Assembly: GCA_963674595.2 (NCBI GenBank)
Contig: CAXXFV010000009.1
Location: 1-64,000, forward strand
DNA length: 64,000 nt
Direction: 5' to 3'
From: a bacterium
Lineage (GTDB): Bacteria; Zhuqueibacterota; Zhuqueibacteria; Residuimicrobiales; Krinioviventaceae
A program made the position numbers and the translations under genes. The notes beneath the pieces are model-generated. The model did not search any database. It worked only from the letters and a program-made list of their open reading frames with translations, and was not told where the DNA came from. Positions 21,296 through 47,314 of the stretch are shown piece by piece. Each line of letters begins with the position of its first letter. The first letter of the stretch is position 1.

Positions 21296-23095
21296 ATGAA
21301 AAATTGTTACAAACTATTCATAGGGGCCTTTATTTACCTTTTACTTATCACTGCTTCAGGTTTATTTTCTCAAGATTTATCAGCGTTCGAATTAATCGAC
21401 AATAATAGCGTTGGATTACAGCCTGCCCCATTCGCCAAACGGGGTGAATGTCTTACAGATATTGACAACAACGGCTGGATAGATATTTATACGCTAAAAT
21501 ACAATGCTAACGGCTATAGTCGTATCCATATAAATAATAACGGTACCTTTACGGATATTACTGATCAAACACCATTACAGGAAATTGAAGACCACAGTGA
21601 TGTTAGGACTTTTAATGTTGTATGGGCTGATTATGATAATGATGGTGATAAGGATTGTAGTTTCGGTACCAATACAAACCTGTTTCTTCTCAGAAATGAT
21701 AATAATCATTTAACAGATGTATCTCAGGAAATGGGATTTGTCGGTTATGGAAATCCGGGATTCTTTTCGGAATGGCACTACAATGTATGTGGCTGGGCTG
21801 ATTATGATCTTGATGGAGATTTGGATTGTGTGGTTTATCAATACCATTATGACAATCTATACCTGTTTAGAAATGACGGTGACCATTTTACTAATGTTGC
21901 TACTGAGGTCGGTTTGGATGGAACAAGTTTGAGTATTGATTCCTTTATTAATCCTCTTGTATGGACTGATTTTGACCTGGATGGTGACCCTGACTTGGTT
22001 GGCAGATTTAACTTTTTTGCAAATGAAGATGGACATTTTCGTGAAGTAACTGAAGAAATTGGTTTGGGCGGGCTTTCCTGGGTTAACCATAAAGAGTTTT
22101 TTGATTATGATAATGACGGCGACCTTGATTATTTTAAAGTAACCGGCTCTACAACCGAAGAAGGCACAAATGAAATGTGGGAAAACCGGGACGGATATTT
22201 TTATAATGTTTCTCCTGAAGTTGGTTTTGGTATTATGAGAGACCGGTTTCGTGGTACAACTATGGGTGATTTTGACAACGATGGTGACCAGGATATTTTT
22301 CTTCAGTTGAATATTGATAGCAGCCCTGACTACTTTTTGTTAAATGAAGAGTTAGAGGGCGGCGGCCGAGCTTTTGTTGATATAGCCGAATTTGTTGGAA
22401 TAACTGTGATGGATGATCGTATTGGTGGCGGATTTTTTGATTATGATAAGGATGGATATTTAGATATTTATATTCCTTCTGTTACATATAGCCATATTCT
22501 GTACCATAATTTAGCCTTAAATAATAAAAATTGGGTTGGTTTCATTTTAGAAGGTACAATTTCCAATAGAGATGCCTTCGGCGCTATTGTAGACCTTTAT
22601 TATGCCGGTAAACAGCAACTACGATATTTGAATAGCTCTCGTGATTTCCTTCGTCAGGATAATCCCTGGATACATTTCGGACTGGGAACAGAAACAGTTG
22701 TTGATTCGGTCGTTATCCGCTGGCCGCTTGGTTACAAACAGGTTTTAACCAATATTGAAATAAATCAATATCATAATATTAAAGAGCCGGACTATACTTC
22801 AGTTGCCGATAATGCTCCCGAAGCTGTACCAACTACATTTGAGTTGAAACAAAACTATCCTAATCCTTTTAATCCGCAAACACGGATAAGTTATTCTCTT
22901 AACCAACCTTCTCAGGTAAAACTTGAAGTTTATGCCGTTACCGGTCAATGCATTTCCGTATTAAAAGATGGTTATCAGCAAGCCGGAACATACTATGTTG
23001 ATTTTGATGCCCAAAATTTACCGGCAGGCCTTTATCTTTACCAAATCAAGGCAGGAAATGTAAAACAGCAAAAAAAGATGCTTTTGATCAAATAA
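21296..23095 (+). CDS. FG-GAP/ASPIC-UnbV protein with CTD, paralog 3
   Basis: AGGAG SD; DxDxDG repeats; SNRDAFGA; QNYPNPFNP. Confidence 0.9.
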   Translation: MKNCYKLFIGAFIYLLLITASGLFSQDLSAFELIDNNSVGLQPAPFAKRGECLTDIDNNGWIDIYTLKYNANGYSRIHINNNGTFTDITDQTPLQEIEDHSDVRTFNVVWADYDNDGDKDCSFGTNTNLFLLRNDNNHLTDVSQEMGFVGYGNPGFFSEWHYNVCGWADYDLDGDLDCVVYQYHYDNLYLFRNDGDHFTNVATEVGLDGTSLSIDSFINPLVWTDFDLDGDPDLVGRFNFFANEDGHFREVTEEIGLGGLSWVNHKEFFDYDNDGDLDYFKVTGSTTEEGTNEMWENRDGYFYNVSPEVGFGIMRDRFRGTTMGDFDNDGDQDIFLQLNIDSSPDYFLLNEELEGGGRAFVDIAEFVGITVMDDRIGGGFFDYDKDGYLDIYIPSVTYSHILYHNLALNNKNWVGFILEGTISNRDAFGAIVDLYYAGKQQLRYLNSSRDFLRQDNPWIHFGLGTETVVDSVVIRWPLGYKQVLTNIEINQYHNIKEPDYTSVADNAPEAVPTTFELKQNYPNPFNPQTRISYSLNQPSQVKLEVYAVTGQCISVLKDGYQQAGTYYVDFDAQNLPAGLYLYQIKAGNVKQQKKMLLIK

Positions 23096-26000
23096 GTTTT
23101 TCCAAGGAGTCTAATAATGATGAGAATGTTAAAAATTTCAGTGTTAATGCTGTTCTGTTTCTGTCAGTTCTTATTTTCTCAGGTTACCTTTGTTAATGTC
23201 CAAAAAGAAATCGGTGAAAAATTTCGTGTCTATCCTAATGCTACGGCATGGGGTGATATTGATAACGATGGTGATCTTGATGCCTATTTAACTATGGGTT
23301 CAAAATATGGCAACGACTTGATGATTAATGATCTTTCTAATTCCGGTGTTTTTCTATGGGCTGATAGTACGATGGCACATGCCGCAAAATCATCCGGTCC
23401 TCGTTGCGGCCTCTTGGCTGATATTGAAAATGATGGTGATCTTGATATTTTTACAATTGGTCAGGATTATCAAAATTGGTTAATTATTAACAAACTGGTT
23501 GAAACAGACTCCTTATGGTTTGAGGACATCAGTGAACAAACAGGAGTCATCCATCTAGAAGAGGCATATTATAACGCTTCAATGGCTGATTATAACAACG
23601 ATGGCCTGCTGGATATTTTTGTTTGTGGGTTGACATCCAATGCTTGGACCCCCTCACTTCTTTTTAAAAATACTTCTACTCAGGAAGGTGTCTCTTTTGA
23701 GGAAGTTGCCTATGATGTCGGCATTTATTCCCTCCTTGGCTTGGATATGGTTGGCGCAATGTGGGCGGATTACGATGATGACGGCGATCAGGATGTTTTT
23801 ATTATATCAAGTCAAAATATGCCGGTATTTTTATACCGTAATGAAGGAAATGATACCTTTACTGATGTAACCGCTGACGCTGGTTTGGGAAATTCTATTG
23901 GTGATGAACGTTCAGCAATATGGGCTGATTTTGATAATGATAGCGATTTGGACCTCTTTATCGGCCGCCGTACTAATGAAGATTTCCCGAATGCGGACAT
24001 TTGCCAATTTTTCAGTAATGATGGCGACGGTACTTTTACCGAAGTTGTAAATGCAAGAATAACCGGAAAGGTTTTCTATGGCAGCGCTGCCGGTGATTAT
24101 GACAATGACGGCGATATTGATTTACACCTGCTGAACTCTAGTGGTGATGATTATATGTTACGCAATGATGGTAATTATGCTTTTACCGATGTTGCAGCAG
24201 ATATTGGTTTAACAAAAGTTGAATCTGCCGGCGGATGGGGTCCGATCGATATAGATGACAGAGGTGGTCAAACCTGGGCAGATTGGGATGCTGATGGTGA
24301 TCTTGATCTTTTGTTACCAGGTGGTAATGGCTCTCAAATATCCTATTTAATGCAAAATGATGGTGGAAATAGCAACAATTGGCTTGAGATTAAATTAACC
24401 GGTGTCACCAGTAACCGGTCCGCTGTAGGAACCCGTGTTATTGTCCGTTCAGGTTATTTACGGCAAATCAGAGAAGTTTGTATGGGATCCGGGTATCTTG
24501 CCGGACCGACAACCGATGTACATGTGGGACTTGCACAACAGTCAACTGTTGATAGTATTATTATAAAGTGGCCCAGTGGTACGATAGATGAATTAATAAA
24601 TGTTTCTGCAAACCAGATATTATCAATAACCGAAGGTAGTTCTCCAAGTGGTGTAGCTTCCGATAAACCTGCAATTGCTTCCGATTTTACATTATATCAA
24701 AACTATCCTAATCCTTTTAATCCGCAAACACGGATAAGTTATTCTCTTAACCAACCTTCCCAGGTAAAACTTGAAGTTTATGCAATTACTGGTCAATGTA
24801 TTTCCGTATTAAAAGATGGTTATCAGCAAGCCGGAACACACTATGTTGATTTTGATGCACAAAATTTACCGGCAGGCCTTTATCTTTACCAAATCAAAGC
24901 AGGAAATGTAAAGCAGCAAAAAAAGATGCTTTTGATTAAATAAGTTTTTCCAAGGAGTTTAATAATGACGAGAATATTTAAAATTTCAATGTTAGTGCTG
25001 CTGTGTTTTTGTCAGTTTTTATTTTCTCAGGTTGCATTTGTTAATGTTCAACATGAAATTGGTGACCAATTTCGTGTTTATCCTAATGCCACATCTTGGG
25101 GTGATATTGACAACGATGGTGATCTTGATGTCTATTTGACAATGGGTTCAAAATATGGCAACGATCTGATGATTAATGATCTTTCTAATTCCGGTGTTTT
25201 TATATGGGCTGATACTTCGATGGCACATGCCATCAAAACATCCGGCCCTCGTTGCGGCCTTTTAGCTGACATTGAAAATGACGGTGATCTGGATATTTTT
25301 GCGATTGGTCAGGATTATCAAAATTGGTTACTTGTTAACAAATTGGTTGAAACAGACTCCTTATGGTTTGAGGACATCAGCGAACAAACAGGAGTCATCC
25401 ATTTTGAAGAAGCATATTATAACGCTTCAATGGCTGATTATAACAATGATGGTCTGCTGGATATTTTTGTATGCGGTCTTTCATCTGATGGCTGGAATCC
25501 ATCACTCTTATTCAAAAACACCTCAACTGTAGATGAGATTTCTTTTGAAGAAGTGGCAATGGATGTAGGTCTTTATTCTTTACTTGGTGTGAGTATGACA
25601 GCCGCTTCATGGGCTGATTATGATAATGATGGTGACCAGGATGTTCTTCTTATCACGAGTTCAGTTAATCCTTTCTTTTTATACCGTAATGAAGGAAATG
25701 ATACCTTTACTGAGGTAACTGCTGATGCTGGATTGGGTACTTCTTTTGGTAATGAACGTTCAGCGCTTTGGGCTGATTATGATAATGACGGCGATTTGGA
25801 CCTCTTTATAGGTAGAAAATGGGAAAGTGAATTAGATCCTGATATGGATATATGTCAATTTTTTAGTAATGATGGAGACGGCACTTTTACCGAAGCTGCC
25901 AACGCAAGGATCTCTGGCAAAGTCTTTTGGGGCAGTGCTAATGGTGATTATGACAACGATGGAGACATTGATTTACACCTGCTGAACTCTGAGGGTGATG

Positions 26001-26574
26001 ATTATATGTTAAGGAACGATGGGAATTTTGTTTTTACCGATGTTGCAGCAGATATTGGTTTAACAAAAGTTGAATCTGCCGGCGGCTGGGGTCTGATCGA
26101 TATAGAAGACAGAGGTGGTCAAACCTGGGCAGATTGGGATGCTGATGGCGATCTTGATCTTTTGTTACCAGGAGGTAATGGATCTCAAGTGCCCTATTTA
26201 ATGCAAAATGATGGCGGAAATAGCAACAATTGGCTTGAGATTAAATTAACTGGTGTCACCAGTAACCGGTCCGCTGTAGGAACCCGTGTTATTGTCCGCT
26301 CAGGTGATTCACGTCAAATAAGAGAAGTTTGTATGGGATCCGGGTATCTTGCCGGACCGACAACCGATGTACATGTTGGGCTTGCACAACAAGCAATCGT
26401 TGATAGTTTAATTATAAAGTGGCCCAGTGGCACGATCGATGAATTAATAAATGTTTCTGCAAACCAGATATTATCAATAACCGAAGGTAGTTCCCCAAGT
26501 GGTGTAACTTGCGATAAACCTGCAATTGCTTCCGATTTTGCTTTATATCAAAATTTTCCTAATCCTTTTAATCC
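22850..26574 (+). repeat. Tandem duplication, unit offset 1848 bp, bounded by QNYPNPFNP codons
   Basis: CAAAACTATCCTAATCCTTTTAATCCGCAAACACGG at 22850 and 24698; gene starts 23117/24965 are also 1848 apart; identity ends at the NPFNP codons ~26574. Confidence 0.9.
23117..24943 (+). CDS. FG-GAP/ASPIC-UnbV protein with CTD, paralog 4 (second subfamily)
   Basis: WGDIDNDGDLD etc.; SNRSAVG; CTD nearly identical to paralog 3. Confidence 0.9.
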   Translation: MMRMLKISVLMLFCFCQFLFSQVTFVNVQKEIGEKFRVYPNATAWGDIDNDGDLDAYLTMGSKYGNDLMINDLSNSGVFLWADSTMAHAAKSSGPRCGLLADIENDGDLDIFTIGQDYQNWLIINKLVETDSLWFEDISEQTGVIHLEEAYYNASMADYNNDGLLDIFVCGLTSNAWTPSLLFKNTSTQEGVSFEEVAYDVGIYSLLGLDMVGAMWADYDDDGDQDVFIISSQNMPVFLYRNEGNDTFTDVTADAGLGNSIGDERSAIWADFDNDSDLDLFIGRRTNEDFPNADICQFFSNDGDGTFTEVVNARITGKVFYGSAAGDYDNDGDIDLHLLNSSGDDYMLRNDGNYAFTDVAADIGLTKVESAGGWGPIDIDDRGGQTWADWDADGDLDLLLPGGNGSQISYLMQNDGGNSNNWLEIKLTGVTSNRSAVGTRVIVRSGYLRQIREVCMGSGYLAGPTTDVHVGLAQQSTVDSIIIKWPSGTIDELINVSANQILSITEGSSPSGVASDKPAIASDFTLYQNYPNPFNPQTRISYSLNQPSQVKLEVYAITGQCISVLKDGYQQAGTHYVDFDAQNLPAGLYLYQIKAGNVKQQKKMLLIK

Positions 26575-26809
26575 TAGTACGAGAATATCCTATCAATTAA
26601 AAAAATCTGCTCATGTTCGTTTAACTATTTATGACATTTCCGGACGTGAGATTAAAACACTTGTTAATAATAATTGTCCTGAAGGAAATGCAAGTATTCT
26701 TTGGGATGGCACAAATAATACGGGTAATATTGTAGCAACTGGAATCTATATTTACAAGCTACAAGTAGGTGCTTTTAATGAATCCCGAAAAATGGTATTT
26801 ATTCATTAG
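24965..26809 (+). CDS. FG-GAP/ASPIC-UnbV protein with CTD, paralog 5 (recent duplicate of paralog 4 body)
   Basis: Body nearly identical to 23117..24943; different CTD after QNFPNPFNP. Confidence 0.9.
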   Translation: MTRIFKISMLVLLCFCQFLFSQVAFVNVQHEIGDQFRVYPNATSWGDIDNDGDLDVYLTMGSKYGNDLMINDLSNSGVFIWADTSMAHAIKTSGPRCGLLADIENDGDLDIFAIGQDYQNWLLVNKLVETDSLWFEDISEQTGVIHFEEAYYNASMADYNNDGLLDIFVCGLSSDGWNPSLLFKNTSTVDEISFEEVAMDVGLYSLLGVSMTAASWADYDNDGDQDVLLITSSVNPFFLYRNEGNDTFTEVTADAGLGTSFGNERSALWADYDNDGDLDLFIGRKWESELDPDMDICQFFSNDGDGTFTEAANARISGKVFWGSANGDYDNDGDIDLHLLNSEGDDYMLRNDGNFVFTDVAADIGLTKVESAGGWGLIDIEDRGGQTWADWDADGDLDLLLPGGNGSQVPYLMQNDGGNSNNWLEIKLTGVTSNRSAVGTRVIVRSGDSRQIREVCMGSGYLAGPTTDVHVGLAQQAIVDSLIIKWPSGTIDELINVSANQILSITEGSSPSGVTCDKPAIASDFALYQNFPNPFNPSTRISYQLKKSAHVRLTIYDISGREIKTLVNNNCPEGNASILWDGTNNTGNIVATGIYIYKLQVGAFNESRKMVFIH

Positions 26810-28717: not shown

Positions 28718-29779
28718 ATGAACATCGGACGATTTAATTTATTGTTTGTGTGCGTATGCGTCATATTTTTTTCTACTTTGCTATACGCACAGGATGGAAA
28801 ATCTACATCGACGAGCAGCGGCTCAACTGACGTTTCCAATACCGGAACTTCAGTTGGCGGATTTTTAGAAATTGGCGCCGGGGCAAGAGCACAAGCTATG
28901 GGTGGTGCTTTTACATCTGTAGCAGATGATGCTACTGCAATGTATTGGAACCCGGCTGGTATTTCACGGTTAGGTAGTATGGAAGCAACTTTTAACTATA
29001 CTAATTGGCTTGTGGATACTCAATATGCCTATGCCGGTATTGTTGCTCCTTTGGGTACATGGGGAGCTGTCGGTGCGAATGTAACACATTTTGATTTCGG
29101 AGAACAACCCGTTCGTACCATAGCAAGACCAGATGGAACAGGCGAAGTATATGGCGCCAGCGATATTGCACTTGGTCTGGCATTTGGAATGAATTTGACT
29201 GACCGGTTTTCTTTTGGATTTAACTTTAAATATGTTAATCAAAGAATTTGGCATGAAACCGCAAGTGGTTACGCTATGGATTTGGGTGCACTCTATGATA
29301 CACCTTTGGATGGATTGCGCCTGGGATTTACAGTACAGAATTTTGGAACCGACATGAAGCTTTCTGGTCGTGACCTTAGACGAGCTTATGATCCAGACCC
29401 AATTAATTATGGAAACGACGCGATTAATGTATTATATGAAACCGATACCTTTTCTTTACCTCTTAAATTTCGTTTTGGAGCATCCTACAAAATTAATTTT
29501 TCTGAAACGCAATCCCTTTTGTTAGTGTCCGATGTACTTCACCCAAGTAACAATTCAGAATCTTTGAATCTTGGAATGGAATATTCTGCTTTTAATACGA
29601 TACAGCTTCGCGGTGGCTATGAATCTATTTTTGAACGTGATAGTATTAGTGGACTTAGCCTCGGTGTTGGAATTCATCAAAGAATTCAAAATACAATGAT
29701 GATTTATTTTGATTATGGCTGGGTGGATTGGGGAGCCTTTTCCAGTGTAAATAGATTTTCTCTTGGAATAGGTTTCTGA
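28718..29779 (+). CDS. PorV/PorQ-family outer-membrane beta-barrel
   Basis: Signal peptide; FLEIGAGARAQAMGGAF..ADDATAMYWNPAG signature; amphipathic strands; C-terminal Phe. Confidence 0.88.
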   Translation: MNIGRFNLLFVCVCVIFFSTLLYAQDGKSTSTSSGSTDVSNTGTSVGGFLEIGAGARAQAMGGAFTSVADDATAMYWNPAGISRLGSMEATFNYTNWLVDTQYAYAGIVAPLGTWGAVGANVTHFDFGEQPVRTIARPDGTGEVYGASDIALGLAFGMNLTDRFSFGFNFKYVNQRIWHETASGYAMDLGALYDTPLDGLRLGFTVQNFGTDMKLSGRDLRRAYDPDPINYGNDAINVLYETDTFSLPLKFRFGASYKINFSETQSLLLVSDVLHPSNNSESLNLGMEYSAFNTIQLRGGYESIFERDSISGLSLGVGIHQRIQNTMMIYFDYGWVDWGAFSSVNRFSLGIGF

Positions 29780-29934: not shown

Positions 29935-32900
29935 ATGCACAAATTTTTTTCAGTACTGATTTGCACATTGTTGGTTTGCCTGGTGTCATTTCCTGCTCTG
30001 GGCCAGGAAGCAGAACCAAACAACACAATTGCTACAGCCAATGATTTAAATCTTAATGAATTATTAAATGCCCAATTTTCTCAAGATGACACATTGGATG
30101 TTTTTAAAATTTCAGTGGATGATACCAAGATGTATACCATTGCCACTGTAACAGATCCAAATGTATTCAGCGCAAAAACCACCATTAAAATGGATGTTGT
30201 AGACGTCAATGATATATCTATCCTGACAGCAGATCCATCAAGTCGATATGATGCGATGGGTGCCCGTTTAACAGGGTGGGTTCCGCCTGCAACAGGTGAA
30301 TATTATGTCAAAGTATGGGCATCACCTGACAAAATTGCCGAAGCAACAGATCCAAGTTACGGCATGCGTTTATGGTACGGTACACCGGTAGCAGATGCAT
30401 TGATACCGCATGAACCGGATGATACGGTAGCAGAAGCCGCCTTATTACCTGCAACGCCGACAGATGGTACCATGATCCGTGGTTATCTGTACAACAATTA
30501 TGTTGAAGGTGACAGCATTGATACCAACTGGAATGACTTTGACTTGTACAAAGTTGAAGTACCTGAAGCCGGTATGGTTATGATAGCTGAAACTTTTACC
30601 TCAGCCCGTTTATATGGCCATCCGGAATGGATTCGTGATCTTGATACGGAAATTCGTTTACTGCTTGAAGACGGTACCGAAACAGACATCAAGAACGATG
30701 ATAAAGATGCCTGGGCCGGAGATCACTGGGAAGATGATTTACCAGGATGCAGCAACACATATTCACGTTTTGTATCTCCTGGATTCCCTGCAGCCGGAAC
30801 TTATTATGTACGAGTAAACTCTTATTACAACAGCATTATTCGCGAAAAGAATCCTGCAAACACGGATAGAGATCCGGGTGGCGGCGAATATATGTTCTCT
30901 GTAAAATTATTAGCAGCCGATGATCCGAGTTTGACTGCCCAGGCATTACCGCTGAACGAACTTAAGAACAGTTCATTTACGGCAGCAGATACTTTGGATA
31001 TTTGGTCAATTTATGCAGAAAATGACAAGATGTATACTTTAGCCACTGTAACAGATCCGAATGTATTCAGCGCAAAAACCACAATTCATATGGATGTTAT
31101 GGATGAAGATGGTGTATCTATCCTGACAGCAGATCCATCAAGTCGATATGATGCGATGGGCGCTCGTTTAACTGGATGGGTCCCGCCCGAAACAGGTGTA
31201 TATTATGTTAAAGTATGGGCATCACCTGACAAGATTGCCGAAGCCACAGATCCAAGTTACGGTATGCGTTTCTGGTACGGCACACCGGTAGCAGATGCAT
31301 TGATACCGCATGAACCGGATGATACCGTAGCAGAAGCCGCCTTATTACCACCAACGCCGACAGACGGTACCATGATCCGTGGTTATCTCTACAATCACTA
31401 TGTTGAAGGTGACAGCATTGATACCAACTGGAACGACTTTGACTTGTACAAAGTTGAAGTACCTGAAGCCGGTATGGTTATGATAGCTGAAACATTTACT
31501 TCAGCACGTTTGTATGACCATCCGGAATGGATTCGTGATCTCGATACGGAAATTCGTTTGCTGCTTGAAGACGGCACAGAAACAGACATCAAGAACGATG
31601 ATAAAGATGCCTGGGCCGGAGACCATTGGGAAGATGTATTACCAGGATGCAGCAACACATATTCACGATTTGTATCTCCTGGTTTCCCTGCAGCTGGAAC
31701 TTATTATGTACGAGTAAACTCTTATTACAACAGCATTATTCGCGAAAAGAATCCTGCAAACACGGATAGAGATCCGGGTGGCGGCGAATATATGTTCTCT
31801 GTAAAATTATTAGCTGCTGATGATCCGAGTTTGACTGCTCAAGCATTACCGTTGAACGAGCTTAAGAACAGTGCATTCTCATCATCAGATACTTTGGATG
31901 TATGGTCTATATTTGCAGAAAATGACAAAATGTACACCATATCCACTGTAACAGACCCGAATGTTTTCAGCGCAAAAACCACAATTCATATGGATGTTAC
32001 GGATGCAAATGGCGTATCTATCCTGACAGCAGATCCATCAAGTCGATATGATGCGATGGGCGCTCGTTTAACTGGATGGGTCCCACCAGAAACAGGTGTA
32101 TATTATGTTAAAGTGTGGGCATCACCTGACAAGATTGCCGAAGCCACAGATCCAAGTTACGGTATGCGTTTCTGGTACGGCACACCGGTAGCCGAAGCTG
32201 CTGTTGTTCATGAACCGGATGATACGGTAGAAGAAGCCGCCTTATTGCCTGCAACGCCGACAGATGGTACCATGATTCGTGGTTATCTGTACAACAATTA
32301 TGTTGAAGGTGACAGCATTGATACCAACTGGAATGACTTTGACTTGTACAAAGTTGAAGTACCTGAAGCCGGTATGGTTATGATAGCTGAAACATATACT
32401 TCAGCCCGTTTATATGATCATCCTGAATGGATTCGTGATCTTGATACGGAAATTCGTTTGCTGCTTGAAGACGGCACTGAAACAGACATCAAGAACGATG
32501 ATAAAGATGCCTGGGCCGGAGATCACTGGGAAGATGATTTACCAGGATGCAGCAATACCTATTCACGATTTGTATCACCTGGATTCCCTGCAGCCGGAAC
32601 TTATTATGTACGAGTAAACTCTTATTACAATAGCATTATTCGCGAAAAGAATCCTGCAAACACGGATAGAGATCCGGGTGGCGGCGAATATATGTTCAAT
32701 GTACGGGTTGTCCCGGCAGATCATCCAATGTTGGCTGCTCAATCATTACCGCTTAATGAACTCAAGAACAGTTCATTTACGGCAGCAGATACTTTGGATA
32801 TTTGGTCAATTTATGCAGAAAATGACAAGATGTATACTTTAGCCACTGTAACAGATCCGAATGTATTCAGTGCTAAAACTACGATTAAAATGGATGTTAC

Positions 32901-34827
32901 GGATGAAGATGGTGTCTCTATACTGACATCTGATCCATCAAGTCGATATGATGCGATGGGCGCCCGTTTAACAGGGTGGGTACCACCTGAAACAGGTGTC
33001 TATTATGTTAAAGTATGGGCCTCACCGGAAAAGCTTGCAGAGGTTGAAGACCCAAGTTACGGTATGCGTTTCTGGTACGGAACTCCTGTCTCTGTTGCAG
33101 CAGTACCACATGAACCGGATGATACGGTTGAAGAAGCCGCCTTATTGGATCCAACTCCGACAGATGGTACCATGATTCGTGGTTATCTCTACAATCACTA
33201 TGTTGAAGGTGACAGTATTGATACCAACTGGAATGACTTTGACTTGTATAAAGTTGTAGTACCTCAAGCCGGTATGATAATGACGGCTGAAACATTTACG
33301 TCAGCACGTTTGTATGATCATCCGGAATGGATTCGTGATCTTGATACGGAAATTCGTTTGCTGCTTGAAGACGGTACCGAAACAGACATCAAGAACGATG
33401 ATAAAGATGCCTGGGCCGGTGATCATTGGGAAAATGATTTACCAGGATGCAGCAATACCTATTCACGTTTTGTATCTCCTCCGTTCCCTGCAGCCGGAAC
33501 ATATTATGTACGAGTAAATTCATATTACAATAGCATTATTCGTGAAAAGAATCCTGCAAACACCGATAAAGATCCGGGTGGCGGTGAATATATGTTCTCC
33601 GTAACACTTACTCTCCCAGCGGAACAGGAACCGAATAATGATATAGCAGATGCAAACTTGATTCTGCTTGACACAGTTACCGATGCCGCATTGGCCCCGG
33701 AAGATTCTGTTGATTACTTTAAATTTATGGCAGATACCACACGAATGTATACATTAAATACAATCGGCGTTCGTGGTGTTAGTGCAAAATCCATCCTCAA
33801 AATGGACGTTCTGGATGAAACCGGAACCAGCATCTTAAATGCTGACCCTTCCAGTCGATACGATGGTTGGGGCGCCAGATTAACAGGATGGGTGCCGCCG
33901 GCTAATGGTGTGTATTATTGCAAGATCTCTGCAGATGTTTCAGCATTTACTGAAGAATTCCCATATCAGGTCAGATTATGGTATGGAACTCCTGTTTCTG
34001 TTGCAGCGGAAGTTCATGAACCGGATGATTCTGTAGCTGTTGCGCAGAATTTTGAAACAATTGATCTTACCGCAGAACCTTTTGAACTTCGTTCTTATCT
34101 CTATGCCCCGATGTGGGACAGCCTTGGTAACCGTCATAACTGGAACGATTTCGATCTTTACAAAATCCAGTTGACCGCCGGTGATACACTTGTAGCTGAA
34201 GTTTTCACACCAGGTCCTGACAGTTGTATCCGTGATTTGGATACTGAAATTTACCTGCTGTTGGAAGACGGTACCATTACAGATATCAAGAACGATGATA
34301 AGGATGCCTGGGAAGGTGATCCCTGGGAAGACTATTTAACAGGTGTAAGCAACACTTATTCACGGTTCGTTACTCCGCCTGTTCCTGCTGATGGTATCTA
34401 CTATGTGCAGGTTAACTCTTTCTACAACAGTCGTATTCGTGAAAGAAATCCATTGACAGATCATAAAGATCCAGGTGGTGGCGAGTATCTGATTAGATTG
34501 AACCTGCAAGATGGAGTTGGTGTTAACGGAAATTCTAATGTTCTACCAACTAAATTTGCACTTAACCAGAATTACCCGAATCCATTTAATCCGACAACAA
34601 CAATCAGTTATGCATTGCCCAAGCAAGAACATGTTAAATTGTATATTTATAACATGTTAGGTCAAAAGGTAACGGAACTGGTTAATAAATCACAGGTTGC
34701 TGGTAATTATTCAGTCGTCTGGGATGCTCGTGATATCAATGGATTGGCTGTTTCTTCTGGTGTTTACTTTTTCAGAATTGAAGCTGGTACATTTACAAGA
34801 ACAAACAAGATGATTTTACTAAAATAA
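29935..34827 (+). CDS. 1630-aa secreted tandem-repeat protein (5 x ~300 aa, each with two PPC-like modules) with CTD
   Basis: Signal peptide; EPNN/EPDD...D.YK...DLDTEI.LL...NDD...GTYYVRV PPC-like motifs; QNYPNPFNP; no catalytic domain recognised. Confidence 0.85.
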   Translation: MHKFFSVLICTLLVCLVSFPALGQEAEPNNTIATANDLNLNELLNAQFSQDDTLDVFKISVDDTKMYTIATVTDPNVFSAKTTIKMDVVDVNDISILTADPSSRYDAMGARLTGWVPPATGEYYVKVWASPDKIAEATDPSYGMRLWYGTPVADALIPHEPDDTVAEAALLPATPTDGTMIRGYLYNNYVEGDSIDTNWNDFDLYKVEVPEAGMVMIAETFTSARLYGHPEWIRDLDTEIRLLLEDGTETDIKNDDKDAWAGDHWEDDLPGCSNTYSRFVSPGFPAAGTYYVRVNSYYNSIIREKNPANTDRDPGGGEYMFSVKLLAADDPSLTAQALPLNELKNSSFTAADTLDIWSIYAENDKMYTLATVTDPNVFSAKTTIHMDVMDEDGVSILTADPSSRYDAMGARLTGWVPPETGVYYVKVWASPDKIAEATDPSYGMRFWYGTPVADALIPHEPDDTVAEAALLPPTPTDGTMIRGYLYNHYVEGDSIDTNWNDFDLYKVEVPEAGMVMIAETFTSARLYDHPEWIRDLDTEIRLLLEDGTETDIKNDDKDAWAGDHWEDVLPGCSNTYSRFVSPGFPAAGTYYVRVNSYYNSIIREKNPANTDRDPGGGEYMFSVKLLAADDPSLTAQALPLNELKNSAFSSSDTLDVWSIFAENDKMYTISTVTDPNVFSAKTTIHMDVTDANGVSILTADPSSRYDAMGARLTGWVPPETGVYYVKVWASPDKIAEATDPSYGMRFWYGTPVAEAAVVHEPDDTVEEAALLPATPTDGTMIRGYLYNNYVEGDSIDTNWNDFDLYKVEVPEAGMVMIAETYTSARLYDHPEWIRDLDTEIRLLLEDGTETDIKNDDKDAWAGDHWEDDLPGCSNTYSRFVSPGFPAAGTYYVRVNSYYNSIIREKNPANTDRDPGGGEYMFNVRVVPADHPMLAAQSLPLNELKNSSFTAADTLDIWSIYAENDKMYTLATVTDPNVFSAKTTIKMDVTDEDGVSILTSDPSSRYDAMGARLTGWVPPETGVYYVKVWASPEKLAEVEDPSYGMRFWYGTPVSVAAVPHEPDDTVEEAALLDPTPTDGTMIRGYLYNHYVEGDSIDTNWNDFDLYKVVVPQAGMIMTAETFTSARLYDHPEWIRDLDTEIRLLLEDGTETDIKNDDKDAWAGDHWENDLPGCSNTYSRFVSPPFPAAGTYYVRVNSYYNSIIREKNPANTDKDPGGGEYMFSVTLTLPAEQEPNNDIADANLILLDTVTDAALAPEDSVDYFKFMADTTRMYTLNTIGVRGVSAKSILKMDVLDETGTSILNADPSSRYDGWGARLTGWVPPANGVYYCKISADVSAFTEEFPYQVRLWYGTPVSVAAEVHEPDDSVAVAQNFETIDLTAEPFELRSYLYAPMWDSLGNRHNWNDFDLYKIQLTAGDTLVAEVFTPGPDSCIRDLDTEIYLLLEDGTITDIKNDDKDAWEGDPWEDYLTGVSNTYSRFVTPPVPADGIYYVQVNSFYNSRIRERNPLTDHKDPGGGEYLIRLNLQDGVGVNGNSNVLPTKFALNQNYPNPFNPTTTISYALPKQEHVKLYIYNMLGQKVTELVNKSQVAGNYSVVWDARDINGLAVSSGVYFFRIEAGTFTRTNKMILLK
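30040..33600 (+). repeat. Four highly similar 900-bp intragenic tandem repeats (a fifth, divergent copy extends to ~34503)
   Basis: Marker ACTGTAACAGA at 30145, 31045, 31945 and 32845 gives an exact 900-bp period. Confidence 0.95.
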
Positions 34828-41135: not shown

Positions 41136-43064
41136 ATGTCAGATCAAATGAAAATTGTGTTTTTCTTTACTGTATACAACCTTTTCACGCTTTTAAATGT
41201 TGTAACAGCAAAGGAAAGATTAATTTACTGGACAGACACACAGGATAAAAAGATATATTGCGGAGATGCTGACGGCGGTCAATATGAAAAAGTGCTTTCT
41301 TCCCGTGATGTAACGTTGTTAACCGCAGCCCAGGGATATATTTATTATTATGAAGAGAACGCCATCCGGCGTGAGAATATGGAGACACGAAAGGTTGAAA
41401 CGTTGATTTCCGAAACAAGCCGGGCAAGCAGTATGGTTATTGACACGCTTCACAGCACAATGTATTGGAGCGCTGATAGCGGCAAGATTTGGCGGGCTGA
41501 TATAACCGGTTCAAACAAACAGGAGTTTATTTGTGGACTGACCCGGCCCAACAATCTGGCCTTGGATCTGGTTTATGAAAATCTCTATTGGATGAATGAC
41601 ACGCGTGATACACTCTTTTGCGCTGGTCTGGATGGGGAAAAAATAAAATCAGTCATAGAACATACTGAAAAGATAATTGATTATGTTGTAGATGGAAGAG
41701 ATCGTCGAATTTATTTTTTAGATGATAACGGTCGTGTTCTCAAGAGTGTAAATCTGGACGGGAATGAAGAAGAGATTGTGTATGTCTTTGATAATATAAA
41801 TCCTCAAATGGAGATTCAATTAGATCATAATAACCAAAAGATTTATTTAACCGATTGGTGTGGGATATGGAGCATGAACACCGATGGAACTGAATTTATA
41901 GAACTGGTTAGCGGTTTTATTTATGGTGTTCAAAATCTAAGTCTGGATTTGTCAAAGGGAGAGATGTACTGGTTTTATCTTTATTGGTCTATGACGATTT
42001 ATCGTTCCCATTTGGATGGTCGAAATGTCGAACCACTGATTGTTAATTATGAATATCCTGTTTGTATTGCTCTTGACCCTGAAAGTGAAAAGATATACTG
42101 GGCAAATTCTTATGCCAATATTTACAAATGTAATACAGACGGTTCCAATGTTGAGTTTCTTACAAACGAGATTTATCCGAATGCTTCATTAAATGATATT
42201 GCTTTGGATGTTGTAAATGAAAAGATGTATTGGGCTAGGCAATCAGAGGGCATAACTGTTGGTTTTGCTAATCTAGATGGCAGCCGGGTTGAATACCCTT
42301 ATTACATACATGGATTTGCGTATGGAGTTGCAGTTGACCCTTTTGATGGAACATTATATTGGAGTAATTCACTTAATACGGTTCTAGGTGCCAATTTGAA
42401 TAACAGCAGTAATGATGTTGAAAAAATTATAAAGTCTTCAGGACAACCGGACGATATTGCTCTTGATTTAAAACATAAAAAGATATATTGGACTGAAAGG
42501 GCTGTAGATTTTAGAGGTGTTAAACGCGCCAATTTAGACGGCAGTGATATTCAGGATGTTGTTACCAGTCTTGAATGGCCCTCCGGTATTGCCCTGGATG
42601 TTGACGGCGGTAAAGTATACTGGATTGAACATCAAGCCGGTAAAATCAATCGGGCAAACCTTGACGGAACAGACATAGAAGAACTGTATACCGGTTTGTC
42701 TTATCCCTATCGACTGGCCTTGTCCTTTGAAAATAACGGTTCGACCGGTGTTGAGAAAAAAGACGATGATCCGAATTTAATACCGCAGGAATTTGAACTT
42801 TCTCAAAATTACCCCAATCCCTTTAATTCGCAAACCGTGCTAAAATATGCCTTACCGGAAGCCTGTCACGTAAGCTTAAAAATATACAACATGCTGGGAG
42901 AAGAGGTGCGTGTTTTGGCGAACGGAACGCAGGGAGAAGGTTATAAATCAGTTGTATGGGATGGCCGGGACAAAAGCGGCGAACTGGTATCCAGCGGCGC
43001 TTATATTTGCAAACTCATCGCAGGCACGTTTACCCGGTCCAGTACAATGATGTTTATCAAGTAA
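41136..43064 (+). CDS. LDL-receptor class B (YWTD) repeat beta-propeller protein with CTD, copy 1
   Basis: Repeated IALD...KIYW..., RANLDG motifs; YWTD; QNYPNPFN. Confidence 0.85.
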   Translation: MSDQMKIVFFFTVYNLFTLLNVVTAKERLIYWTDTQDKKIYCGDADGGQYEKVLSSRDVTLLTAAQGYIYYYEENAIRRENMETRKVETLISETSRASSMVIDTLHSTMYWSADSGKIWRADITGSNKQEFICGLTRPNNLALDLVYENLYWMNDTRDTLFCAGLDGEKIKSVIEHTEKIIDYVVDGRDRRIYFLDDNGRVLKSVNLDGNEEEIVYVFDNINPQMEIQLDHNNQKIYLTDWCGIWSMNTDGTEFIELVSGFIYGVQNLSLDLSKGEMYWFYLYWSMTIYRSHLDGRNVEPLIVNYEYPVCIALDPESEKIYWANSYANIYKCNTDGSNVEFLTNEIYPNASLNDIALDVVNEKMYWARQSEGITVGFANLDGSRVEYPYYIHGFAYGVAVDPFDGTLYWSNSLNTVLGANLNNSSNDVEKIIKSSGQPDDIALDLKHKKIYWTERAVDFRGVKRANLDGSDIQDVVTSLEWPSGIALDVDGGKVYWIEHQAGKINRANLDGTDIEELYTGLSYPYRLALSFENNGSTGVEKKDDDPNLIPQEFELSQNYPNPFNSQTVLKYALPEACHVSLKIYNMLGEEVRVLANGTQGEGYKSVVWDGRDKSGELVSSGAYICKLIAGTFTRSSTMMFIK

Positions 43065-43165: not shown

Positions 43166-45136
43166 ATGAGAATTGTGATAAATGAAAAGGATACAGCCAT
43201 GTTAAAAAGAGCAGCATTTGTGTTTTTCTTTACTGTATACAACCTTTTCGCGCTTTTAAATGTTGTTACAGCCAAAGAAAGATATATTTACTGGATCGAT
43301 AGAGTTGACGACAAAATATATTGCGGAGATGCTGACGGCGGTCATTATGAAAAAGTACTTTCTTCCCGTTATGTAAGGTTGTTAACTGCAGCCCAGGGAT
43401 ATATTTATTATTATGAAGAGGATGCTATCCGGCGTGAGAATATGGAGACAAGAACGGTTGAAACCCTGATTTCCGAAACGGGCCGGGTTAGCAGTATGGT
43501 TATTGACACGCTTAACAGCACAATTTATTGGAGCGTATCAGACAGCGGCAAGATTTGGCAGGCTGATATAACCGGTTCAAACCAGCAAGAGTTTCTTTGT
43601 GGTTTGGTTCTGCCCAATAATCTGGCCCTGGATCTGGTCTATGAAAATCTCTATTGGATGAATGATACCCGTGATACCGTTTATTGTGCTGGTCTGGATG
43701 GTGAAAAAATAAGATCGGTTATAGAACACAATGAAAAGATAAGTGATTATGTTGTAGATGGAAAAGCACATCGAATTTATTTTACTGATGATAATGGTCG
43801 CGTACTCAAGAGTGTGAACCTGGACGGCAACGAAGAAGAGATTGTTTATACCTTTGAAATTGAGAGTTTTCATAGAGATCTTCAACTTGATTCCAGGAAC
43901 AAAAAGCTTTATCTGACACATCATTCCCAGATATTGAGAATCAATACCGATGGAACTGAATTAAAGGAACTGGTTAATAATTATGATTTAGGTAGTCAAT
44001 ATCTAAGTCTTGACCTGTCAAGGGGGGAAATGTACTGGTATACTCCTCTATGGACTTATACGATTTATCGTTCCCGTTTGGATGGGCGAAATATTGAACC
44101 AGTGATTGTTAATTATAAAAATTTGACTTGCCTTGCTCTTGATCTTGAGGGAGAAAAGATGTATTGGTCAGGTAATTTTTATAATATTTATCGTTCTAAT
44201 ATTGACGGTTCTGAAGTAGAGTTCCTTATATATGATTTTATTGCAAATGCTGAGTTATTGGATATTGACCTGGATATGGTAAACCAAAAGCTATATTTTG
44301 CAAGTGCAGCAGAAGGTCAAGCTCTTGGCCGAGCAAATCTTGACGGCACTGATGTAGAATTTCCCTATAATGTTTTTTGGCATTGGACATTCGGTATCAC
44401 CGTTGATCCATCTCAGGAAAAGGTCTACTGGAGTCAACTTGGGTCAACAAGGACCACTTCAATTTGTTGTGCTGATTTGAACGGTCAAAACATTGAAATG
44501 CCCGTTGATAGTCTTGAATTTCCTGACGATATTGCTCTCAACCTGAGAGATAATAAAATCTTTTGGACCGAACATTTAAAAGTTGGTCGAATCTGTTGCG
44601 CTAGTTTAGATGGCAGTGATATTCATGATGTTGTTACCGGTCTTAAATGGCCCTGTGGTCTTGCCCTGGATGTTGAAGGTGATAAAATATACTGGATTGA
44701 AAGAGAACCCGGTAAAATAAAACGGGCGAATCTGGACGGAACAGATATTGAAGAACTGTATAGCGGTTTTACCTGGCCCTATCGCCTGGCCTTGTCCTTT
44801 GAAAACAACGGTTCGACCGGTGTTGAGAAAAAAGACGATGGACCCAATTTAATTCCGCAGGAATTTGAACTGGCTCAAAATTATCCCAATCCATTTAATC
44901 CGGAAACGACAATAGAATATAACTTGCCAAAATCATCACACATTGTTTTAACTGTTTATGATATCCTCGGACATGAGATTATTACACTGGTCGATGAAAA
45001 GCAGCAGGCAGGATTACATCAGCAAAACTGGAATGCTTGTGATTGTTTCGGCAACCAGGTCTCTTCAGGTATTTATGTATATAAAATCAAAACCGATGAT
45101 GCTGTTTGTTCTAAAAAGATGCTTTATATAAAGTAG
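43166..45136 (+). CDS. YWTD repeat beta-propeller protein with CTD, copy 2
   Basis: Paralog of 41136 (start probably ATG 43199); different CTD after NPFN. Confidence 0.85.
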   Translation: MRIVINEKDTAMLKRAAFVFFFTVYNLFALLNVVTAKERYIYWIDRVDDKIYCGDADGGHYEKVLSSRYVRLLTAAQGYIYYYEEDAIRRENMETRTVETLISETGRVSSMVIDTLNSTIYWSVSDSGKIWQADITGSNQQEFLCGLVLPNNLALDLVYENLYWMNDTRDTVYCAGLDGEKIRSVIEHNEKISDYVVDGKAHRIYFTDDNGRVLKSVNLDGNEEEIVYTFEIESFHRDLQLDSRNKKLYLTHHSQILRINTDGTELKELVNNYDLGSQYLSLDLSRGEMYWYTPLWTYTIYRSRLDGRNIEPVIVNYKNLTCLALDLEGEKMYWSGNFYNIYRSNIDGSEVEFLIYDFIANAELLDIDLDMVNQKLYFASAAEGQALGRANLDGTDVEFPYNVFWHWTFGITVDPSQEKVYWSQLGSTRTTSICCADLNGQNIEMPVDSLEFPDDIALNLRDNKIFWTEHLKVGRICCASLDGSDIHDVVTGLKWPCGLALDVEGDKIYWIEREPGKIKRANLDGTDIEELYSGFTWPYRLALSFENNGSTGVEKKDDGPNLIPQEFELAQNYPNPFNPETTIEYNLPKSSHIVLTVYDILGHEIITLVDEKQQAGLHQQNWNACDCFGNQVSSGIYVYKIKTDDAVCSKKMLYIK

Positions 45137-45199: not shown

Positions 45200-47314
45200 A
45201 TGAAGACGGAAATTAAAAATAGTTTTCTTTTTATATTGCTTACAGCCTTAAATCTGACTGCGCAAGAACCGCTTGTTGGCCGTTGGACGTTTGAGGATAC
45301 GGATAATCTTGTCAAAGCAACAGTCGGTAACGATCTGGTATTAGTTGGCAGTCACTCATCTGTCAGTGGTCCGGATGCTGAAAATCGTGCTATAAATATC
45401 GGCATAGGTAGTTATTATATCTGTCAACACAATATTCCGCCAAACGGCAATGGTGAAAAGGTCAATGAATTTACAATCGTAATGGATGTCAAGTTTAATC
45501 AGACAAGTGTCTGGTACACATTATATCAAACAGATGTTTTAAATCAAACGGACGGCGAGTGGTTTGTTGATCGTTCCGGTAAAATGGGTGTTCATGCAAC
45601 AGGCTATTCCAGTCCGGTTATCACAGCGAACAAGTGGTATCGGTTGGCCATCGCTGTTAAAAATGGTGAACGATATGACTATTATGTTAACGGCAATCCG
45701 GTGCTCAGGGGACAGCCCGGTGTTATTGATGACCGGTTTTCTCTGGAACCCACTGTTTTGTTATTTGCGGATGACAATCAGGAAGATAATTCTGTCGATG
45801 TCTCTGAAATACGGATATACTCGCAGGCACTGTTTGACGATGAAATTGATGAACTGGGAGGTTTTGATCAATCCGGGACTACTGATGAGTCTGATCCATT
45901 TTTAACGGTTGATTATCTCTCAGAGCATGAGCTTAGGTTGGTTCTTGATAATGAAATTCATGATAATTATGGATTTGTCTATCCAGTAACTTATAAAATA
46001 GATATTCATGCAAACAGTTCAGATTTAATCACCTATATACGATATTCAACGTCAGAGTCATGGCAGCAGGTTGAGGAAAAACAATCAAGTGACTTTTTTA
46101 ATGGTATAGAAGCGGTACGGTTTGATTATTCTGCGGGTTTGGCTTTTGTCTCCGCAGCGTTTAGTAGCGCGTCCGATTCTTTGTTTATAAAAATTTCAGA
46201 TGGTATTCAAGAAATTCCAATATCTTTTTTAGACATCTGCAAGTATTATGATGACCGTAAGGCTGTTGTAACCGCTTCTGCTGATGATTGGGCAGACAGT
46301 GGAGACCAAACCTGGTATCAGTCTGATGAAGCATTTCAAATAACATGCAGACAATTTAGAAAACACAAATTGTGGCTGACCTGTGGAATTATTACCCAAT
46401 ATTGCGGCAGTGAAACATGGCAGCATATTCAAACCCAGCTTGATTCCGGCTATGTTGAAGCCTGTTCTCATTCCCGGACACATTCCTATGGTCCCTATGA
46501 AGATCCGGAGGGCGAAATAGCCGGCAGTAAACAGGATATTTTTGATAATTTGGATTTACCATTGTTATTCAAAAAGCATGATTTAGAGTACGTGTACACA
46601 TGGCTCGCACCGGCGCATTATTATGATGAAATTGTAAACACACTTGTCGGCGCTGAAAAATACCTGGTGAACCGGCTTTACAATTGGCCCTATGATATAT
46701 TTTCTGACTGGAATCCGGCTGCGGGATATTATTTCCCAATTGGCATGTCCCGTGAAGTTTCACCTATTTGGGAAGGCACAACCGATCTTGATGATTTAAA
46801 CTCGTATTTTGATATAGTTGTGGATAAAGGCGGAATATACCATGTTATGACGCACCCGTATTTTTTACTTGAGAATGGTTTCAATGCCGCACAATATGCC
46901 TGGGATCATCTCGACTATATTAGTCAGAAAAATGATATTTGGTATGTTTGTCTGGGTCATTTGTATTTATACCATTATCTAAAGGAAAATGTTGCAGTTG
47001 CAACCTCAGTTACTAAATCTGAAGATAAGATAACACCTGAGTTGATGCTTTTACAAAATTATCCCAATCCTTTTAACTCACAGACCGTGATAAAATATGC
47101 CTTACCAAAAGCTTGTCATGTTAGCCTTAAAATTTACAATATGCTGGGAAAAGAGGTACGGGTATTAGTAAATGATCCTCAAGCAGATGGAAATAAATCT
47201 GTTGTCTGGGACGGCAAGGACAACAGCGGTGAAATGGTAACGAGTGGTGCTTATATTTACAAGATCGAGGCTGGAAAATTTAACCAGTCAAATATTATGA
47301 TGTTTATAAAGTAA
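45200..47314 (+). CDS. LamG-like domain + polysaccharide deacetylase (NodB-like) domain + CTD
   Basis: WTFE...KWYRLAI..YVNG..EIRIY LamG-like; ASADDW, SHSRTH, MTHP deacetylase motifs; QNYPNPFN. Confidence 0.7.
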   Translation: MKTEIKNSFLFILLTALNLTAQEPLVGRWTFEDTDNLVKATVGNDLVLVGSHSSVSGPDAENRAINIGIGSYYICQHNIPPNGNGEKVNEFTIVMDVKFNQTSVWYTLYQTDVLNQTDGEWFVDRSGKMGVHATGYSSPVITANKWYRLAIAVKNGERYDYYVNGNPVLRGQPGVIDDRFSLEPTVLLFADDNQEDNSVDVSEIRIYSQALFDDEIDELGGFDQSGTTDESDPFLTVDYLSEHELRLVLDNEIHDNYGFVYPVTYKIDIHANSSDLITYIRYSTSESWQQVEEKQSSDFFNGIEAVRFDYSAGLAFVSAAFSSASDSLFIKISDGIQEIPISFLDICKYYDDRKAVVTASADDWADSGDQTWYQSDEAFQITCRQFRKHKLWLTCGIITQYCGSETWQHIQTQLDSGYVEACSHSRTHSYGPYEDPEGEIAGSKQDIFDNLDLPLLFKKHDLEYVYTWLAPAHYYDEIVNTLVGAEKYLVNRLYNWPYDIFSDWNPAAGYYFPIGMSREVSPIWEGTTDLDDLNSYFDIVVDKGGIYHVMTHPYFLLENGFNAAQYAWDHLDYISQKNDIWYVCLGHLYLYHYLKENVAVATSVTKSEDKITPELMLLQNYPNPFNSQTVIKYALPKACHVSLKIYNMLGKEVRVLVNDPQADGNKSVVWDGKDNSGEMVTSGAYIYKIEAGKFNQSNIMMFIK

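Follow-up and report, generated by a model that had tools for sequence, protein, structure and literature searches.

First tag codons as a recurrent body–tag junction among type IX secretion cargo genes of one bacterial genome

Genomes of the kind considered here encode 100–200 proteins that carry the same C-terminal sorting tag, and the origin of such repertoires is poorly described. How do these cargo genes multiply, and how does one tag come to stand behind unrelated cargo? The question is raised by the first 64 kb of contig CAXXFV010000009.1 (C9:1–64000; hereafter the window, meaning the whole stretch of 64,000 nucleotides (nt) that was analysed) of an uncultured member of the Zhuqueibacterota, whose genome comprises 6.6 Mb in 37 contigs, with 38.8% G+C and an estimated contamination of 5%. 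The window holds a same-strand run of secreted-protein genes, seven of which encode FG-GAP/UnbV_ASPIC (CRTAC1-like) proteins of about 600 amino acids (aa) each, and the remaining cargo includes β-propeller, lectin-like and phosphatase-like bodies and one 1630-aa repeat protein. Within this run lies a head-to-tail repeat that involves three adjacent genes, here called genes 3, 4 and 4′. The original prediction, made from the sequence alone, held that the 1848-bp repeated unit does not correspond to a gene, that it arose by unequal crossover between the short motifs with which the tags of adjacent genes begin, and that this motif could act as a built-in recombination site for secreted cargo.

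The tag in question is the type-A sorting domain of the type IX secretion system (T9SS), a C-terminal domain (CTD) in which 12 window genes end and whose first element reads (Q)N[YF]PNPFN. We found 12 matches to AAYTWYCCNAAYCCNTTYAAY in the window, all on the + strand, and none in 100 shuffles of the sequence; the 12 motif sites of the original prediction are thus real, its coordinates being those of the Gln codon, 3 nt upstream of each match. All five cargo proteins tested score 30.4–44.3 bits against TIGR04183 (cut-off 23), and PF18962 exceeds 27 bits in 8 of the 12 motif-bearing window proteins, with the other four at 21.7–26.1 bits. Across the genome, the motif stands 75–100 aa before the stop codon in 145 of 150 motif-bearing open reading frames (ORFs), with modes at 80 and 85, and these 145 are the CTD genes referred to below. 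Outside the window, a 2065-aa frame on contig C4 gives an SprA_N match of 136.5 bits and represents an SprA-like translocon gene. On the strength of profile scores above cut-off, the C-terminal position of the motif, and the SprA-like and PorV/PorQ-family genes (the latter described below), the tagged genes of the window are T9SS cargo with a type-A CTD, and their export is predicted.

A tandem repeat out of phase with its genes

Gene 3 (21296–23095, + strand) encodes a 599-aa FG-GAP/ASPIC (CRTAC1-like) secreted protein with a tag that we call CTDx, as judged from its ORF, from matches to Pfam FG-GAP_3, UnbV_ASPIC and Por_Secre_tail (39.6 bits), and from a TIGR04183 score of 40.8 bits against the cut-off of 23. 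Gene 4 (23117–24943, + strand; 608 aa) joins a second body, body 4, to CTDx, an assignment resting on its ORF, domain profiles and trees, and gene 4′ (24965–26809, + strand; 614 aa) joins body 4′ to a different tag, CTDy, according to its ORF, domain profiles and tag identity. Local alignment paired 22850–24723 with 24698–26574 at 87.5% identity over 1873 columns, the offset being 1848 and then 1851 after small indels, and a repeat search recovered 22850–23149 against 24698–24997 at 95%.

The left edge of the repeat lies in the QNYPNPFNP codons of gene 3 (22850–22876, + strand), 3 nt ahead of the motif's first Asn codon, a position that we write as −3. Upstream of it genes 3 and 4 are unalignable, and from −3 on they are near-identical across the tag, the stop codon and the spacer, and then into the next gene. 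Copy 1 of the unit (22850–24697, + strand) accordingly consists of the motif, CTDx, the stop codon, a 21-nt spacer that contains AAGGAG, and the body 4 sequence as far as its motif, whereas copy 2 (24698–26574, + strand) consists of the motif, a copy of CTDx, the spacer and body 4′, and ends inside the motif of gene 4′; the spacers of the two copies, which we compared directly, are identical at 20 of 21 nt. The junction between the units coincides with the QNYPNPFNP codons of gene 4 (24698–24724, + strand), as placed by alignment and motif match. By the same two criteria the right edge falls in the QNFPNPFNP codons of gene 4′ (26549–26575, + strand), 22 nt into the motif block. Compared base by base, genes 4 and 4′ show 90–98% identity up to that point, and beyond it their tags are 49% identical in nt. 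Both edges of the head-to-tail repeat, and its internal junction, therefore fall in the motif block, that is, in sequence common to the parental sites.

The tags and bodies of the three genes tell different histories. Between genes 3 and 4, nt identity is 95.8% in the tag and aa identity about 31% in the body, whereas the bodies of genes 4 and 4′ are 85% identical in aa; similarity between the two units is uneven, ranging from 62% to 100% across 60-nt windows. The alignment and these identities bear out the predicted order body 3–CTDx, body 4–CTDx, body 4′–CTDy and the lack of register between unit and gene. We also built separate trees of bodies and tags for 12 family members of this genome, using 11 tags because the long-branch row C8_+412037 was dropped. 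On bodies, gene 4 is sister to gene 4′ (100/99) and gene 3 groups with C3_+378953 on another contig; on tags, genes 3 and 4 are sisters (99/98). A clade of genes 4 and 4′ is rejected by the tags (log-likelihood lower by 29.2; approximately unbiased (AU) test, p-AU 0.00027), and the incongruence that the original prediction expected of such trees is thus present.

Public Logan contigs from X3 and X4, two runs of one sample, carry both units as separate contigs with 0 differences, and in X3 the depth is 5.8–6.8 over the units and 3.8–7.8 over the flanks. A further run, X5, yielded a 1776-nt contig over 22952–24727 with 92 differences in 1709 aligned nt relative to gene 4, together with a gene 3 contig with 4 differences in 1793 nt, at a depth of about 2×; this suggests extra turnover or conversion in body 4 of a related organism. 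Two apparent joints in X2 (22873>24691 and 24723>28381) were considered as variants and rejected: their sides are shorter than 30 nt, the likeness is 85%, and the source is a sediment metagenome, pointing to tags of other organisms.

The motif as a junction across the genome

To place the focal repeat in its genomic context, 105 merged regions around CTD genes (743 kb) were compared by BLASTN with the whole genome, keeping blocks of at least 150 nt and at least 75% identity. This gave 191 non-self blocks with 368 endpoints uncut by region limits. Forty of the 368 fall in the interval [−12, +40] around the motif in each of the two partners, as against 1.03% expected under uniform placement (binomial P = 8e-28, indicative only, as pairs share ancestry). 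Block starts cluster at −3 (14 blocks) and 0 (5 blocks) and block ends at +28 (7 blocks); a second cluster of 32 endpoints sits at gene ends, from +240 to +300, and only 8 endpoints fall between −1000 and −12. Among the 57 in-register pairs with a block touching the motif, 45 have a block edge in it (34 starts and 11 ends) and 12 run through it, four of the latter beginning merely 14–80 nt upstream.

Identities of bodies and tags across all 10,440 gene pairs lead to the same place. Eighteen pairs reach 80% identity or more over the final 300 nt of the body, and their tags are below 70% in 12 and at least 80% in 6. Conversely, the tags are at least 80% identical in 25 pairs, of which 16 have bodies below 60%; several tag-sharing pairs are adjacent genes. 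Clustering gave eight tag classes, six of them found on more than one body class (one on six), which amounts to at least 11 joins. Many tag-only blocks end at the stop codon or at most 27 nt past it, and since they are bounded by the first motif on one side and the gene end on the other, the tag behaves as a cassette. Genome-wide, then, the motif is a recurrent body/tag junction, both for duplications and for moves of tags onto unrelated cargo.

A second case within the window concerns β-propeller cargo. The body of the gene at 41136–43064 (+ strand; C9_+42807) is 97% identical, up to motif +28, to that of one gene on contig C3 (C3_−67558), whereas its tag matches that of another C3 gene (C3_−69621) at 93.5%. 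On its left the 97% block begins about 19 nt past the start codon, in the signal-peptide region, and the first six codons differ; because this edge is so near the start codon, bodies too appear to act as cassettes, with a 5′ junction near the start. The tandem paralog of the gene at 41136, at 43166–45136 (+ strand), has a body 76–89% identical to motif +28 and an unrelated tag (C9_+42807 against C9_+44879, block −1652 to +28), and the gene at 45200–47314 (+ strand) combines an unrelated body (Laminin_G_3) with a tag of the same class as that of the gene at 41136 (76–79% nt identity from motif to stop). The arrays on C3 (about 11–70 kb, minus strand) and at 41–50 kb of C9 have β-propeller (DUF5050/LDL-receptor-B) bodies in common, at 76–97% identity, with three tag classes. 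One of these two arrays may derive from a mixture of strains, given the estimated contamination, although their flanks differ.

Two neighbours of the focal genes complete the array. A PorV/PorQ-family outer-membrane protein is encoded at 28718–29779 (+ strand; NF033709, 201.9 bits against a cut-off of 90), between the FG-GAP paralogs and the repeat protein, and may be a dedicated shuttle or attachment partner of the neighbouring cargo. The 1630-aa CTD protein at 29935–34827 contains four to five tandem 900-nt repeats of 91–96% identity (the fifth copy 74%) with matches to PPC pre-peptidase domains, and its internal repeat is a recent expansion.

Probable short-homology exchange and its alternatives

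We favour, with a probability of roughly 0.65, short-homology unequal crossover together with gene conversion at the first conserved codons of the tag. This reading starts from the junction positions, the incongruence of bodies and tags, and the recurrence of the pattern in this genome and a few other lineages; the enzymology and the direction of each event we infer. Each cargo gene encodes a signal peptide, then a variable body and finally a type-A CTD some 80 aa long, with NYPNPFNP as the first conserved element of the CTD. As the motif is near-invariant in protein and the genome is AT-rich with biased codons, its approximately 26 nt are the sole stretch common to otherwise unrelated cargo genes, and short-homology recombination would take this DNA as its junction. 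Such joining could proceed by unequal exchange between sister strands, by a template switch from one gene to its neighbour, or by conversion, whether the genes involved are neighbours or lie dispersed. At the focal locus, the gene 3 motif would have exchanged with that of an ancestral gene 4, so that CTDx, the spacer and body 4 were duplicated as one unit, and the units would have become mosaic through subsequent conversion or import; elsewhere in the genome the same junction would have placed complete CTDs behind unrelated bodies and moved bodies to other CTDs. Such products would persist because all of them are in frame with a complete sorting domain. Unequal crossover between the motifs of adjacent genes, as originally predicted, would yield exactly the architecture observed, and the junctions, focal and genome-wide, do lie in motif codons.

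A number of observations, from this genome and from others, weigh against this reading. A BLAST block will run on through whatever motif is conserved, which limits the resolution of the junction to the motif block of about 30 nt; for low-identity pairs (e.g. the C35 pair) the true position could be a few tens of nt into the tag. In this genome there are also blocks that start at −14, at −19 and, in two cases, at −80, and one that ends at +49. The shared ancestry of pairs inflates event counts, so that the number of joins (at least 11) is the safer figure. Tag-only blocks need a second, 3′ junction that a mechanism based on the motif leaves unexplained. At the focal locus, public contigs break at the 44–60-nt identical block (breaks at 22879 and 24727), none among the listed pieces bridges it, and the tandem order is unconfirmed by reads.

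Outside this genome, replication is mixed: the junction recurs across lineages, yet it is one of several module borders that are used. A DNA search of 30 related genomes, which included no member of the same genus and whose nearest relatives belong to other genera, returned only motif-sized matches, and a scan of JGI metagenome contigs with gene 4 gave a best match of 32% aa identity. The complete genome G008 served as a partial replicate, with 98 of 145 motif sites recovered; among these 98 we found five tag-only blocks, starting at 0, −3, −10, −64 and −71, so that two of the five start off the motif. When a G008 array of six genes was compared with a G015 array of seven, block edges coincided with gene ends or stood some 535 nt upstream of the motif; the syntenic array with which the comparison of these two genomes began had equal gene counts and was therefore uninformative. 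The expectation that breakpoints elsewhere would not be random with respect to the motif thus holds for the junctions of this genome and for three of the five G008 blocks, and fails in the G008/G015 array. Across 79 loci of other metagenome-assembled genomes (Ignavibacteria, Calditrichia, Balneolales, Bacteroidota and others), chosen for carrying a similar tag, 9 of 49 neighbour pairs share a motif-touching block; four of the nine blocks start at −3 to −9 and five further upstream. The genome studied here is unusually rich in recent events. The tandem array that differs in gene number between the congeners G015 and G008 encodes CTD proteins of about 1100–1190 aa (G015:C2:1931000–1964000, L013/L014; G008:C1:4072000–4100000, L082/L083), and a single 6.1-kb stretch of it is 92% identical between the two.

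A one-step history is also incomplete for the focal repeat, along which synonymous divergence (dS) is not uniform: dS is 0.18–0.20 for the CTDx pair, 0.38 for body codons 1–170, 1.29 for codons 171–340 and 0.19 for codons 341–526, and the identity steps in the unit alignment are sharp, near 23630 and 24170. We sought a donor for the diverged middle of body 4/4′ in this genome and found none. Such unevenness calls for later gene conversion or import, or for an old duplication. The single unequal crossover of the original prediction therefore survives as to the position of its junctions and not as one clean event. On the simplest account, a single out-of-phase duplication preceded a partial homogenisation of the two units or import into one of them; the main alternative is an old whole-gene duplication followed by motif-anchored conversion tracts, and both accounts place the junction in the motif.

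That alternative would form the focal locus by conversion alone. Genes 4 and 4′ would be old tandem duplicates of a whole gene, a tract running from the gene 3 motif through CTDx and the spacer to the 5′ part of body 4 would have overwritten the corresponding part of gene 4/4′, and a second tract would have made the bodies alike over their 3′ third, as far as the motif. Consistent with this possibility, dS in the middle (1.29) stands out against 0.19–0.38 at the flanks, the two identity steps are sharp, and many of the tag-only blocks shared by neighbours resemble conversion tracts running from motif to stop codon. Conversion alone would, however, take more events than one crossover with partial homogenisation, and a tract that crosses 220 nt of heterology from a left anchor of about 26 nt is demanding. 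We consider it a possible but rather doubtful route, and one that, with the junction still in the motif, would alter the mechanism and not the finding.

Another explanation dispenses with DNA homology altogether. Illegitimate breakpoints might fall anywhere, and only survivors with an intact body and an intact sorting domain would be kept, hence junctions at domain borders. Edges do occur at other module borders, namely at gene ends (the 32 endpoints at +240 to +300), at about −535 in the G008/G015 array and in the signal-peptide region of the gene at 41136, and the linker itself contains some junctions, at −48 to −83. But the linker is unconstrained and random joins should scatter through it, yet 34 starts lie in [−9, +6] and 4 at −14 to −80. 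The tight clustering of starts at −3, with so little scatter in the linker, argues for homology-guided joining and not for a selection filter alone, which we regard as unlikely.

Less probable still is the built-in site of the original prediction, in which the motif DNA would be maintained for the cassette-like gain, loss and shuffling of secreted cargo. The high recurrence of the junction in this genome, the in-frame nature of all products and the arrangement of the genes in same-strand arrays would all suit such a site. Synonymous variation within the motif, on the other hand, is about what codon usage would lead one to expect: synonymous codon homozygosity lies near the expected value (e.g. 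0.30 and 0.26 in the Pro columns against 0.27), synonymous codon use resembles that in the bodies of the same genes, and all four Pro codons are common. There is no overall excess of conservation at synonymous sites, only a modest one in three of the eight codons of N-Y-P-N-P-F-N-P (the second Asn, the last Pro and, slightly, the Tyr) and in the flanking Gln. The median exact shared run at the motif is 9 nt in random gene pairs, and runs of at least 20 nt occur in 296 of the 10,440 pairs (2.8%). No silent or truncated donor cassettes were found among the 12 motif-bearing window genes: each is a full ORF, and each has a hydrophobic N-terminus. As type-A CTDs are generally cleaved off during export, a tag-for-tag exchange would have no obvious phenotype. 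Judging by codon use, the role of the motif as a junction is probably a by-product of protein conservation and codon bias and not that of a selected DNA element, and events are presumably favoured between genes with matching codon choices and between neighbours.

Finally, an assembly artefact, in which the graph was mis-threaded through the 44–60-nt identical block or the alleles of two strains were set in series, might be suspected from the 37 contigs, the 5% contamination and the breaks of public contigs exactly at the repeat edge, but is very improbable, because the units differ by 12.5% and have unique contigs of their own with flank-like depth in X3, the only other route that the graph permits would close a single unit into a circle, and the junction pattern recurs at more than 10 further loci, on other contigs, so that an artefact would hardly account for it in general.

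Implications and relation to known systems

These joins reveal a concrete route to large cargo repertoires, with the approximately 26 nt for the first tag motif as a recurrent junction that duplicates cargo genes and moves tags between unrelated cargo. Some consequences are practical: trees of T9SS cargo should be built separately for bodies and tags, the similarity of neighbours' tags is not evidence of common cargo ancestry, and short-read assemblies are prone to break or mis-thread at the motif. We raise, tentatively, the broader possibility that in CTD-rich phyla motif-anchored cassettes drive the growth and diversification of T9SS cargo repertoires, the first tag codons and the conserved gene end acting somewhat like an exon-shuffling junction in bacterial form; any body could then gain a secretion tag there, and arrays of secreted proteins could expand or contract out of phase with gene boundaries, at rates that would matter for adaptation. 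A search confined to the main texts of open-access papers and to bioRxiv found no description of recombination at a T9SS tag motif.

Tandem paralogs are known to undergo concerted evolution by gene conversion, and the focal repeat shares with that process its mosaic identity and tracts that end where homology ends. Concerted evolution fails, however, to explain a unit that is out of phase with the genes. A different parallel is offered by tandem duplications and amplifications in Escherichia coli, with units of 7–32 kb, whose junctions lie at G-rich microhomologies of 4–15 bp at many sites (Slack et al. 2006, PMC1428787). There, too, in the cases drawn on from that paper, the novel junction of a tandem duplication falls in very short identity present at both parental sites; here, in contrast, the junction is a recurrent, protein-coded motif, the unit measures 1.85 kb, and an in-frame fusion has been kept over evolutionary time.

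A further comparison is with the T9SS cargo paralogs of Porphyromonas gingivalis, the gingipains Kgp and RgpA and HagA, for which domain rearrangement has been described (Dashper et al. 2017, PMC5266723). Both cases involve paralogous T9SS surface proteins that swap modules by recombination, with combinatorial architectures and incongruent phylogenies as the outcome (PMC5266723). The modules of P. gingivalis are adhesin domains within the cargo and alleles of catalytic domains exchanged between strains, the CTD is conserved, and a junction in a CTD motif is not described in the portions of that paper relied on here (PMC5266723). In the present case, by contrast, the exchanged unit is the CTD itself or a whole body, within one genome of an uncultured organism.

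A border motif of comparable kind is found in contact-dependent growth inhibition (CDI), where the VENN pre-toxin motif marks the border between the constant part and the exchangeable part for orphan cdiA-CT/cdiI modules (review, PMC7662968). According to the relevant parts of that review, a short conserved peptide stands at the border and its coding DNA is thought to supply homology for module replacement (PMC7662968), much as proposed here. CDI, as presented in the same parts, exchanges a C-terminal toxin with a linked immunity gene, and its orphans are truncated and silent (PMC7662968), whereas the genes described here have a C-terminal sorting signal, no immunity genes, full gene copies and homology of only about 26 nt. 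Nor is module displacement of the CdiA/Rhs type matched at the focal locus, where the C-terminal module is a sorting domain and a further cargo gene follows after 21 nt. By analogy, then, the junction appears to resemble both the border-motif exchange of CDI and the cargo rearrangement of P. gingivalis, while belonging to neither.

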